Source: an uncultured Planctomycetaceae bacterium (GTDB taxonomy: Bacteria > Planctomycetota > Planctomycetia > Planctomycetales > Planctomycetaceae). Taken from it: a stretch of 64,000 bases of DNA. The translations under genes and the position numbers were made by a program. Below are positions 46,569 to 50,821 of the stretch, piece by piece. The stretch spans positions 160,001 through 224,000 of the forward strand of contig CAWFGE010000007.1 of the NCBI GenBank assembly GCA_963815195.1, read 5' to 3'. A model generated the notes under the pieces. The model saw only the letters and a program-made list of their open reading frames with translations, was not told the origin of the DNA and ran no database searches. Numbering within the stretch: position 1 is the first letter of the stretch; each line of letters begins with the position of its first letter.

Positions 46569-46789
46569 TCCAAAACGCCGCGTCCGCATTGCCCGAACCA
46601 ACCGCAGCGTTGACAGGATCCGCCGCCCGCGGTTTGACCTGTTTTTCCCAGGCGCGGATTGCCGATGATTCTTGAAAACGGCAAGATATTTCGATAAGAT
46701 TTAGTCGTGGGAGATTGCGGATCATCCGGATTTGGCAATCTCCTCCCCGCCCCCCGCCCGAAAAACCCCTCCCACCTTCGGCTCCTGCC

Positions 46790-49129
46790 ATGCGACAGTT
46801 TTCGATTGCTTCATGTCTTGCGATTGCGCTTTATGCGGTTTGGGAATCGTCCCCTTCCGCCCATGCCGCTGACAAGCCGAGCCCCGGACAGCAAATTTAC
46901 GCCAAAACTTGCGCCGAATGCCACGGCAAAGAGGGCGCAGGCGGCGATGGCTACGAAAAACCGCTCGCGGGCGATCTTTCCGTGCCGCAGCTCGCCAAAT
47001 TGGTCAAAAAGACGATGCCGCAGGACGAGCCCGGCACGCTGTCCGCCGAGCAGTCGCAGCAGGTCGCCCAGTACGTTTACGATGCGTTTTACTCCGCGAT
47101 CGCCCGTTCGCGGAACCAGCCCGCGCGGATCGAATTGGCCCGGTTGACCGTCCGCCAATATCGGCTGGCGCTCGCCGACTTGATCGGCAGCTTCCGCCAA
47201 CCGCCGGTGTGGGATGAGAAGCGCGGCCTGGGTGGGGAATATTACGAAGGCCGCCGCCCGGGCGATCGCCGCAAGCGGAAAGAAACCCGCGTCGATCCGC
47301 AGGTGAATTTCGACTTCGGCAAAGAGGCCGCGGTGCCGGACATCAAAACGCCCTACGAGTTTTCCATCCGCTGGGATGGTTCGGTCTTGGCTCCGGAAAC
47401 CGGGGACTACCGGTTTGTCGTCCACACCGAGCACGCCGCCCGCTTGTGGCTGAACGACAAGGAGCAACCCGTGATCGATGCCTGGGTCAAGTCGGGCGAC
47501 GACACCGATTATGAAGCCGAGGTGTTCCTGGTCGCCGGGCGGGTTTATCCGCTGAAGCTCGAGTTCACCAAAGCCAAGCAGGGCGTGGACGATTCCGAAA
47601 AAACGCAAAGGGCCGCCGCCCTCGAAGCCGGCTTCGATCAAGCTGCTCTGGAAACGTCCCCGCGGCGCATTGGAGCCGATCCCCGCCCGCCACATGGCTC
47701 CGCACGAAGTCCGACGAGGTGTTCGTGTGCGATACGCCGTTCCCGCCGGACGACCGCAGCTACGGCTGGGAACGGGGCACGGCGATTTCCGAAGCCTGGG
47801 AACGAGCGACAACCGATGGGGCGATCCAGGCGGCGCGTTATGTGGCCGAGCATCTCGATCGATTGACCAGCACAAAGCCCGGCGACAAGAACCGCGACGA
47901 GCGGGTGAAAGCCTTCTGCCGGACCTTCGCCGACCGCGCCTTCCGCCGGCCGCTCACGGATAAAGAGTCCCAGTGGCTGATCGACAAACAATTCGCCGAA
48001 GCCGGTTCGACCGAAGCCGCGGTCAAGCGCGTGGTGCTGTTGACCCTCAAGACGCCGCAGTTTCTGTATCGGGAAATCGGCGGCCCGGACCAGTTCGACG
48101 TGGCTTCGCGGTTGTCGTTCGGGCTCTGGGATTCCCTCCCCGATGAAACTCTCATGAACGCCGCGAAAGCCGGGGAGTTGGCGAATGAAGACCAAGTCGC
48201 CCGCCAGGCCGAGCGGATGCTCGCCGACCCGCGGGCCAAGATCAAGATTCGCGAATTTCTGCTGAATTGGCTGCGGGCGAACTCGGAAATGGATCTCAGC
48301 AAAGATGCCGAGAAGTTCCCCGGTTTCGATGAGCACCTCGTCGCGGATTTGCGCACGTCGCTGGAATGGTTCCTGGACGAAGTCGTGTGGTCCGAAGAAT
48401 CCGATTACCGCAAGCTGCTTCTGTCCGATGAAGTTTATGTCAATCCCCGGCTCGAGGAATTCTTCAAAGTCAGCGTGGACGGGAAATCGGTGTTCGCGCC
48501 GGTCAAGCTCGACGACGGCCAGCGGGCGGGGATTTTGACGCACCCCTACCTGATGGCTCAGTTCGCCCACGAAAGCGAGACCTCGCCGATTCATCGCGGG
48601 GTGTTTGTGCTCCGGGGGTTGATGGGCCACACGCTGCGTCCGCCGCCCGAGGCCGTCACTCCGCTGCCCGCGAAACTGCATCCCGATTTGACGACGCGGG
48701 AGCGGGTCGCTCTTCAGACCAATTCCAAAACTTGCATGACCTGCCACGCGATGATCAACCCGCTGGGCTTTTCGATGGAGAAGTTCGACGCCGTCGGCCG
48801 CTACCGCGAGAAGGACCGCGAGAAACCCATCGACGACACCGGCAGCTATCAGACCCGCGCCGGCAGCGAAAAAACCTTCCACGGCCCCCGCGAGCTCGCG
48901 GAGTTCATCGCCAACAGCGAAGAAGCCCACGCCGCGTTCGCGGAGCAGTTTTTCCATCACCTCGTGCAGCAATCCATCGGAGCCTACGGCCCCAATGTCG
49001 CAGAAAGAACTCACCAAACAATTTGCCGCCGACAAGTTCCACATCCGCAAACTCGCGGTTAACATCATGGCGAAGTCGGCGTTGATCGGCAGAGAAACCC
49101 AATTGGCGGATATTCTTTCTAATCCATAA
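46790..49129 (+). CDS. Cytochrome c / PA14 / DUF1592-DUF1588 family protein, three frameshifts (near 47605, 47712, 49003)
   Basis: CAECHG, PA14-like FSIRWDG, ASRLSFGLWDSLPD, SPIHRG, CMTCH; last frame ELTKQF...LSNP* ends at 49129. Confidence 0.85.
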
Positions 49130-49172
49130 GTTTAAGGATCTCGGCAACGCGTCAGCCGTAAAGACGCCGTTC

Positions 49173-49430
49173 ATGACAATTCGAGTTGAAATTCGAGAAG
49201 GTGAAAATCTCAAGGAAGCCGTTAACAAATTACATCAACGCGTTAACATGATGTTTGGACGCGCTTGGTACAAATCGCGGATCGGATATTACGAAAAACC
49301 GAGTGAGCGTCGAAGAAGGAAACGAAATCTGCGCAAACGAAACTTGAAACTGATTGAACAGCACGGCCCTCCTGTCCGGATGCGTCATGGCCTCAAAACC
49401 ATTCACCAGAGGGAGAAGGGGTTTCCGTAA
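49173..49430 (+). CDS. Divergent 30S ribosomal protein bS21 homolog
   Basis: IRVEIREGENLKEAV..L...V and YYEKPSERRRRK match the bS21 pattern; 85 aa, basic, lower GC. Confidence 0.75.
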   Translation: MTIRVEIREGENLKEAVNKLHQRVNMMFGRAWYKSRIGYYEKPSERRRRKRNLRKRNLKLIEQHGPPVRMRHGLKTIHQREKGFP

Positions 49431-49458
49431 GGCAAACTCATCACGAGGCGATGTTCGC

Positions 49459-49493
49459 TAAACCTTAAACCTTAAACTGGAAACTTGAAACAC
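49459..49493. repeat. Five-unit heptamer array
   Basis: TAAACCT TAAACCT TAAACTG GAAACTT GAAACAC. Confidence 0.8.
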
Positions 49494-49509
49494 CTAGCGG
49501 AGAACTCCT

Positions 49510-50821
49510 ATGACATCCCCGAAAAGCCGGCGTGATTTTCTGCGTGACCTGGGCCTGTCCGCGGCGGCGACGCCGTTTATTTTGAACCTGCCCAGCCTGG
49601 GTTTCGCCAACCAGGGGCAGCCCAAGAAACGGCTCGTGGTGATGTTCAGCCCCAACGGCGTTGTGCCCGAATACGTTTTGGCCGGATGAGGAAGGCCCGG
49701 AGTTCACCTTGAAGGAAAGCCTCAAGCCGCTCGAACCGTTTAAGGACAAAACCCTGACTCTGCACGGCGTCTGCGATCGGGTTCGCGGCGACGGCGACAG
49801 CCACATGCGCGGCATCGGCTGTTTGCTCACCGGGATCGAACTGTTCCCCGGCAACATCCAAGGCGGCTCGGACACGCCCGCCGGCTGGGCCAGCGGCATT
49901 TCCATCGATCAGGAAATCAAAAACCACCTTCAAAAAGACCCCGCGACCAAAACGCGGTTCGGCTCGCTGGAGTTCGGCGTGATGGTTCCCGACCGGGCCG
50001 ATACCTGGACCCGCATGGTCTATGCCGACGCCAACCGCCCCATCGCCCCCATCGACGATCCCTATCAGATGTTCTCCAAGCTCTACGGCCAGATGAAAGA
50101 CCGCGAAACGCTGGTGAGCATCCTCGACGACCTCAAGGACGACCTCAACAAGGTCAAGGGCAGCATCAGCAGCGAAGACCGCCAGCTCCTGGAAGAGCAC
50201 GCGACCTTCGTGCGGGAGATGGAAGAGGAAATGCAGGCGGCCAAAGGCCCGGTGCACGCCGTGCCCAAGCTCGAACCGGGCGTGAAGGAAGACAACGACA
50301 ACATTCCCACGATCAGCAAAATGCAGATCGAATTGATGGTCAACAGCTTCGTCAACGATTTCAGCCGCGTCGCCACGCTGCAATACACGAACTCCGTGGG
50401 CGGGGCCAGAATGCGCTGGCTGGGCATCGATGAGGGCCATCACAGCCTGTCCCACTCGCCGGACTCCAAAACCGAGGACATGGAAAAGCTCACCAAGATC
50501 AACAAGTGGTTCTGCGAGCAACTCGCCCATCTCGCCAAGCGCCTCGCCGAGACCCCGGAGCCCGGCGGCCAAGGCAGCCTGCTCGATAACACGCTCATCC
50601 TCTGGACCAACGAGCTCGGCAAGGGCAGCTCGCATACGCTGAACGATATTCCCTTCGTGCTCGTCGGAAACGGTTTGGGCTTCAAGATGGGCCAATCCAA
50701 AAAGCTCGGCCGCGTCCCGCACAACCGCCTGTTGATGGCCCTCGCCCACGGCTTCGGCCATCCCGTCAAAACCTTCGGCAACCCCGCCTTCTGCGGCGAC
50801 GGCCCGCTCGATTTGAGCTAA
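49510..50821 (+). CDS. Tat-exported DUF1552 protein, frameshift near 49665
   Basis: [11 protein letters not shown]...[11 protein letters not shown], then PNTFWP...SIDQ...HHSLSH...SLLDNT. Confidence 0.88.

Follow-up and report, generated by a model that had tools for sequence, protein, structure and literature searches.

What is a small gene resembling that of ribosomal protein bS21 doing between two genes that usually stand next to each other, and how did it come to be there? Clear cases of ribosome heterogeneity in bacteria are few, and accessory bS21 copies, with examples in Francisella, in Flavobacterium and in phages, belong to them; the carrier of the extra copy considered here is a soil planctomycete. 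The gene lies on the forward strand at 49173..49430 of a 64,000-nucleotide (nt) stretch of an uncultured Planctomycetaceae bacterium (assembly GCA_963815195.1, contig CAWFGE010000007.1; G000:C7:160001-224000 in our numbering, G000 being the source genome). This whole stretch is called the window below, and positions refer to it. An original prediction, made from the letters alone, had taken the gene for a divergent bS21 homolog carried in as the cargo of a repeat-bounded cassette. We read it as an acquired accessory bS21 paralog with a predicted autoregulatory leader in front of it, a reading that as a whole we hold with moderate confidence. New here is a clade of S21-like genes of the Planctomycetia with a near-invariant leader that is absent from Rfam.

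The open reading frame (ORF), 85 amino acids (aa) long with the stop codon included in the coordinates, is intact, contains YYEKPSERRRRK and FGRAWYKSRIG and carries a C-terminal extension, as had been described. Two curated S21 models aligned to it across the domain: PF01165 covered residues 5-58 (profile positions 2-54 of 55) with 18.6 bits against a cut-off of 27, and TIGR00030 covered residues 4-58 (2-56 of 58) with 27.3 bits against a cut-off of 28.95 (E 2.3e-6). The hidden Markov model search proposed with the original prediction thus bore it out in the alignment, in which the Y-E-K-P-S and basic stretch is kept, but not in the scores. A profile built from 26 members of the clade to which the ORF belongs (A7) was then compared with the PDB, where bS21 chains of bacterial, mitochondrial and plastid ribosomes made up 37 of the 38 rows at E up to 1 (best E 1.8e-8), the sole row of another protein having an E value of 0.22. 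An AlphaFold2 model of the window protein has five helices, with a predicted local distance difference test score (pLDDT) of 74 and a predicted template modelling score (pTM) of 0.38; seven of the eight rows that Foldseek returned for it were bS21 chains, at E 0.2-2.9 and template modelling (TM) scores of 0.26-0.43. We conclude that the ORF is a genuine homolog of bS21, though a very divergent one. It retains the N-terminal strand, the first helix and the Y-E-K-P-S with its arginine run of canonical bS21 (rpsU; PF01165, TIGR00030), and differs from it in the segment ahead of YEKPS, which reads FGRAWYKSRIG, and in a 25-residue C-terminal extension common only to its nearest relatives; in the alignment both the central helix region and the C-terminus lie far from canonical bS21.

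The gene also differs from canonical rpsU in being a second copy. When PF01165 was run over the whole assembly, one match exceeded the cut-off: a 66-aa protein of ordinary S21 sequence on another contig (G000:C15, 56.5 bits). The window copy reached 16.4 bits in the same search, and two more matches had E values of 0.33 and 0.73. The canonical rpsU that the original prediction had suggested looking for is therefore present elsewhere in the genome, and the window gene, whose product is about 30% identical to that of this rpsU, is a paralog beside it and not the sole rpsU.

Relatives of the protein are scattered. The single window protein, used as the query of a word-indexed homolog search, matched only itself, and in three genomes of the same genus (85-94% complete) it matched only canonical rpsU. 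A full-length relative was found in one of 40 related genomes, G012, which belongs to the same family and another genus (86 aa, 51% identical, in a different context), and in one of the 53 loci of a genome-contig search. In another search the top row other than the query itself, and the only one that was read, the remaining rows at 33-49 bits being taken as canonical S21, was a 95-aa member of the window's subgroup (G137, L120 1426-1713), which lies in a locus of 38% GC and adjoins a Fic-type gene recognised by eye from its HPFxDGNGR motif. An alignment of five members (A4) extended the family to 194 proteins at E up to 1e-3. Among the 120 of these matches that were listed, one large group has members about 100 aa long (GPPGAG-KRPKWHK...YYLKPSE), and several smaller ones stand beside the group of the window gene itself, which is marked by the signature W-Y/H-K-x-R-x-G-Y-Y-E-K-P-S together with a C-terminal R-M-x-x-G-L-K..H-x-R..F-P. 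Some of the matches, including one from Limnoglobus roseus, are labelled '30S ribosomal protein S21' at their source. A quick IQ-TREE tree with 122 rows set the nine rows of the window's group apart by a branch with a Shimodaira-Hasegawa-like approximate likelihood ratio test (SH-aLRT) value of 85 and joined them to the 100-aa group, away from canonical S21 including the genome's own; since the groups were defined by their motifs, this clustering is descriptive only. The window gene falls within a Planctomycetia clade of S21-like paralogs, whose proteins measure 85-110 aa and are 25-52% identical to the window protein. The 100-aa profile retrieved no members from the families f16 and f29. The neighbours of 15 S21-like loci had no family in common, and many of the ORFs scanned there, in high-GC DNA, may be spurious. 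A full-text literature search for S21 paralogs in planctomycetes or Gemmataceae returned nothing relevant.

What the clade members have in common, beyond the protein, is the sequence immediately in front of it. In the loci read, a non-coding leader of about 27 nt, CCGGC-A-NN-GCGTC-A-GCCG-T-(N1-3)-AGACGC, is followed after 0-6 nt by the start codon. In the window its core, GGC-AAC-GCGTC-A-GCCG-T-AA-AGACGC, occupies 49142..49167 on the forward strand. It can form a hairpin of 5 base pairs (bp), GCGTC/GACGC (49149-49153 / 49163-49167), whose 3' end lies 5 nt before the ATG, and possibly a second helix of 4 bp, CGGC/GCCG (49141-49144 / 49155-49158), which would give an H-type pseudoknot. The leader is better conserved than the proteins behind it, with 19 invariant columns in 18 loci against the 25-52% identity of the latter. 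A covariance model of the leader (R1) matched the window only once, at 49133..49176 of the forward strand (39.6 bits, E 5.9e-7), and applied to 151 genomes of the class it gave 23 matches in 19 genomes. These were spread over 12 of 30 genomes of family f5, 6 of 35 of family f4 and, besides the source genome, none of 35 of the window's own family. All but one of the 23 directly precede an ORF recognised by the clade profile (E 3.6e-40 to 4.9e-9); the odd match sits within an unrelated ORF. The source genome holds one leader, G791 and G701 hold two each, the second copies likewise standing 5' of S21-like ORFs, and G442 holds five. Rfam (Rfam 15) yielded no credible match for the window stretch or for four related loci, and 'S21' does not occur in a survey of ribosomal leaders (PMC7247131). 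A plain pattern search of 401 genomes of the phylum added three matches, all by chance and with no S21-like ORF behind them. We regard the leader as a candidate new RNA motif that is tied to S21-like genes across the clade.

Two of the multiple-copy genomes deserve a separate remark. In G442:C1, near 1.34, 1.36, 5.19 and 5.21 Mb (L186-L189), four identical copies of leader plus S21-like gene lie in repeat-rich regions, and the fifth copy differs from them. G791 is a complete genome, and one of its S21-like proteins is the same as the one listed at NCBI for Limnoglobus roseus. The second copy of G791 (L162) has an in-frame stop after about eight codons of the S21-like ORF behind its leader and may be a pseudogene.

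Pairing in the leader was tested on 34 sources fed to R1, among which the false match (L182) and duplicate loci had not been admitted; they gave 31 distinct sequences. The hairpin is paired in all 31 of them. Two of its changes are compensatory (G-C to A-U in G476, U-A to G-C in G442) and one gives a G-U pair, and the second helix has one-sided changes only, each preserving the pairing. The observed number of double changes was reached in 5 of 500 shuffles.

The second half of the question, how the gene came to its place, was approached by comparing the locus with its counterparts in the same genus. Upstream of the S21-like gene lies a gene with cytochrome c, PA14, PSD5/DUF1595, PSD4/DUF1592 and PSCyt3/DUF1588 domains (46715..49129, forward strand, read in three frames via single-base indels), and downstream of it a DUF1552 (HXXSHH) gene (49510..50821, forward strand, with one frame change near 49665). 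At 12 of the 15 DUF1552 loci of the source genome a co-oriented PSCyt3 gene is found directly upstream, and in the closest relative, a genome of the same genus (G001), the gap between the two genes is 75 bp; the S21-like gene indeed parts two genes that are usually adjacent. The G001 operon aligns to window positions 46660-49111 at 88% and to 49460-50805 at 92%, and over the rest of the 64-kb window that G001 contig matches one 90-nt stretch and nothing more. Between the aligned blocks the window has a variable low-GC segment of 348 bp (49112..49459), which stands in place of the 75 bp of G001, and the two are mutually dissimilar. The segment opens within the final codons of the upstream gene, whose stop codon it provides, so that the upstream protein ends in ...LADILSNP in the window and in ...LADRTQAKK in G001. 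Its GC content is 46.8% and that of the ORF within it 46.1%, compared with 60.8-61.1% for the flanking genes and 59.7% for the genome.

Two further congeners carry other cargo in the orthologous slot: a 160-aa DUF4274 gene in G002 (39.4 bits; L103 210-692) and a different, 60-aa acidic ORF without a Pfam match in G003 (L104 340-522). As G000, G001, G002 and G003 each differ at this point, the four congeners represent four states of one intergenic slot, and the S21-like gene is absent from the orthologous site of G001, as had been anticipated, and not syntenic across relatives. By eye, array-like GAAAACT units are visible on the flanks of the G002 and G003 cargo. The composition of the gene, its scattered occurrence and the concentration of its family in two other planctomycete families make it likely that it was acquired horizontally, from a lineage of lower GC content and as a unit of leader and ORF. 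This unit would have been self-contained when it was transferred into the DUF1592/DUF1552 site, where the S21-like gene would be co-transcribed with the DUF1592/DUF1552 operon.

For what the gene would do there, two described systems offer precedents. We predict that the S21-like protein takes the place of bS21 on a fraction of the 30S subunits. The leader, which occupies the position of a Shine-Dalgarno sequence, would serve as the operator for the translation of its own gene, and the protein, or ribosomes already bearing it, would repress that translation through the leader. Such autoregulation through the leader seems likely. In Francisella tularensis, which has bS21-1, -2 and -3, bS21-2 is reported to be repressed via its own mRNA leader, the leader being sufficient for repression (PMC13374519); as with the window gene, additional bS21 copies stand beside a main one, and the likely point of control is a leader tied to the accessory copy. 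The planctomycete genes differ from those described in that source in belonging to another lineage, in having a near-invariant hairpin or pseudoknot across at least three planctomycete families (the window's own, f4 and f5), and in that their incorporation into ribosomes is predicted only. The rpsU gene of Flavobacterium johnsoniae is described as autoregulated via translation by ribosomes that lack bS21 (PMC9976891), and here too a cis element at the Shine-Dalgarno position would couple the supply of S21 to the translation of its own mRNA. The Flavobacterium element given in that report is an extended Shine-Dalgarno sequence, whereas in the window leader no Shine-Dalgarno-like pairing was seen and a structured element stands instead; moreover the window gene is an accessory paralog and not the sole rpsU.

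The same protein features admit a different function. The S21 fold might have been kept in a small RNA-binding regulator or a ribonucleoprotein component that works off the ribosome, the leader being merely its best binding site. The strong unlikeness of the central helix region and the C-terminus to canonical bS21 fits this, as do the multiple copies in some genomes (five leader matches in G442, two each in G791 and G701) and the proposal, set out in PMC12054373, that bS21 is a component of the OLE ribonucleoprotein complex. We nevertheless think an off-ribosome role rather unlikely: the two features that define S21, its N-terminal strand-helix part and the YEKPS-RRRR stretch, are retained, and the motif is single in the source genome, so that no regulon is visible.

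Several results weigh against an acquired accessory bS21 paralog with an autoregulatory leader. The window ORF alone falls under both curated S21 cut-offs, and the matches of its model to bS21 structures are weak. The leader is mostly invariant, so that its covariation comes from two sequences, and the alignment was fitted to R1, which leaves the covariation with modest force. Folded on its own, the window leader was not more stable than shuffled sequences (z 0.88; 160 of 200 shuffles folded at least equally well). The genome's own rrn operon contains no look-alike of the leader by blastn or R1; the best R1 score there was 15 bits, on the opposite strand, and the blastn matches were merely 7-13 nt long with E about 1 or worse. 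The clade member of G137 has no leader and carries an ordinary Shine-Dalgarno sequence, AAGGAGG, instead. No sigma-70-like promoter was seen 5' of the S21-like gene and no same-strand terminator-like site 3' of it. Finally, both flanking genes are frame-changed, so that the locus may be decaying or the assembly may contain indel errors.

An accessory bS21 under the control of its own leader would matter beyond this locus. The clade adds a lineage in which the accessory bS21 copy travels with its own near-invariant cis element, and it offers a testable pair of an 85-110-aa protein and a 44-nt RNA, with which to ask how the supply of S21 is sensed and whether S21 variants alter which mRNAs get initiated. 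The locus also documents an intergenic slot with different small-gene content in each of four congeners. A bolder proposal, which we consider possible but doubtful, is that the Planctomycetia have an undescribed specialised-ribosome system. Leader-gated S21-like paralogs would swap onto the 30S platform as portable modules of operator plus ORF, with a compact pseudoknot in place of the Shine-Dalgarno helix that only ribosomes with a free or canonically occupied bS21 site can read, and the window would hold a module freshly transferred into a family that mostly lacks it.

How the leader and ORF reached the slot bears on the claim of the original prediction that the gene is bounded by repeats and was delivered by a cassette. 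The left 9-mer, AGTTTAAGG (49129..49137), is the complement of the right 9-mer, CCTTAAACT (49470..49478), and the latter is part of an array of five AAACNNN units (AAACCTT AAACCTT AAACTGG AAACTTG AAACACC; 49460..49494, forward strand) on the 5' side of the DUF1552 gene. Both 9-mers and all five heptamers are present as claimed, and in the 64-kb window the 9-mer has only these two copies where 0.16 were expected, a number reached in one of 100 shuffles. The right 9-mer, however, belongs to a native array. It falls in the block that aligns at 92% with G001, and at the empty site there the array has the sequence CCTTAAACA, or in another excerpt ...GAAACCTTAAACATGAAACTTGAAACC. Strict arrays of three or more AAACNNN units number 17 in the source genome, of which 11 were left after a filter for TG/TT-type units. 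Seven of these 11 lie 0-17 nt ahead of an ORF of at least 60 aa, and nine come after DNA of ordinary GC content. Because the array lies in a block common to the G001 empty site and such arrays recur before ORFs, we take it to belong natively to the 5' side of the DUF1552 gene and not to be an end of the insert. Arrays of (T/G)(T/G)AAACN heptamers, at 49460-49494 and in 10 other places of G000, form a genus-level 5' element. A hairpin element, CCGGCCGCTNACGCGGCTCGGCTCGCC, precedes several of the arrays and is also present in the 75 bp of G001.

Arrays may nevertheless bound inserts elsewhere in this genome. Outside the window, at G000:C7:8100-9500 (L191), another pair of DUF1592-type and DUF1552 genes encloses a gene of the PF05635 '23S rRNA-intervening sequence protein' family (48 bits). 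Inverted arms of 62 nt, 90% complementary and made of heptamer arrays, flank this gene; they are formed together by a 14-nt repeat, AAATGCAAAGTGAC, which extends over about 240 bp on its upstream side, and a TTTGCAC heptamer array on its downstream side. With a gene placed between inverted arrays in this way, array-bounded inserts of small genes do exist in the source genome. The PF05635 insert resembles the S21-like gene in being a small low-GC gene in the same kind of DUF1592-type/DUF1552 slot, and differs from it in belonging to an unrelated protein family and in having 62-nt inverted arrays where the S21-like gene has a mere 9-nt pair.

On this ground the S21-like gene could itself have come as cargo in a small mobile cassette, one that has inverted heptamer-array units for its ends and was inserted by recombination at arrays. 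The inverted 9-mer pair around the gene, the PF05635 gene in its equivalent slot, the array-like units beside the G002 and G003 cargo and an exact 12-nt copy of array sequence, GAAACTTGAAAC, within the ORF (49339-49350, codons R-N-L-K-L, repeated directly at 49480-49491 in the native array, which may be chance or a trace of recombination) all speak for such a cassette. We judge it quite unlikely, as the right arm is part of the native array, which the empty site has too, and the left arm consists of one 9-nt unit. No target duplication or direct repeat was found at the junctions 49111/49112 and 49459/49460, where 348 bp stand for the 75 bp of G001. Nor is a recombinase gene found among the neighbours: a kinase, both genes of the operon and a 1221-aa gene that looks ATPase-like by eye, without a family scan. 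Nine of the 11 filtered arrays, moreover, follow DNA of ordinary GC content, and the relatives of the gene stand in unrelated contexts, loci that were not checked for arrays. Compared with an integron-like or MITE-like (miniature inverted-repeat transposable element) cassette, the insert lacks terminal repeats of its own, the right arm being an array that G001 has at its empty site, and shows neither a target-site duplication nor a nearby recombinase. Delivery by a repeat-bounded cassette is thus the part of the original prediction that found no support, the PF05635 insert being the one point in its favour.

Alternatively, the ORF may be a recent and non-functional hitchhiker in a decaying operon. 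Relative to G001, single-base indels occur at window positions 47596, 47710, 47971, 48885, 48999 and 49665, which spread the DUF1592-type gene over three frames and the DUF1552 gene over two, and these frame changes in both flanking genes, together with the lack of a promoter or terminator of its own, would suit a hitchhiker. The ORF itself, however, is unbroken and can be aligned over its full length to relatives of about 50% identity, including the C-terminal R-M-x-x-G-L-K...H-x-R...F-P, and the leader core is intact as well, which makes a dead passenger improbable. The copy of the upstream gene in G001 is also frame-broken and two further DUF1552 loci of the source genome are likewise split, which suggests indels of assembly over decay; a metagenome contig lacks the base at 48999. 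The frame changes are probably assembly errors and only possibly decay. Contigs from three metagenome runs span parts of the flanking genes only and leave the insert uncovered.

A phage origin, after the manner of the bS21 genes of aquatic phages, is most improbable: bS21 genes are described as common in phages and repeatedly exchanged with hosts (Mizuno et al. 2019, PMC6375957), and the virus-encoded genes treated there share with ours that an S21 gene moves horizontally and could alter the host ribosome, but the window clade is chromosomal and without viral context, tblastn at E 0.01 matched nothing among 50,697 phage records and 72,556 plasmids, a two-sequence alignment found no relative on IMG/VR viral contigs, phage genes are absent beside the S21-like gene, and in the quick tree it groups with S21-like genes of planctomycete chromosomes.

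Window positions 49115-49122, at the insert's left edge, read CTTTCTAA, which by eye equals the last bases of the 3' tail of the genome's 16S rRNA and may be chance. In other clade members CTTTCAA stands immediately 5' of the leader core, which may likewise be chance.

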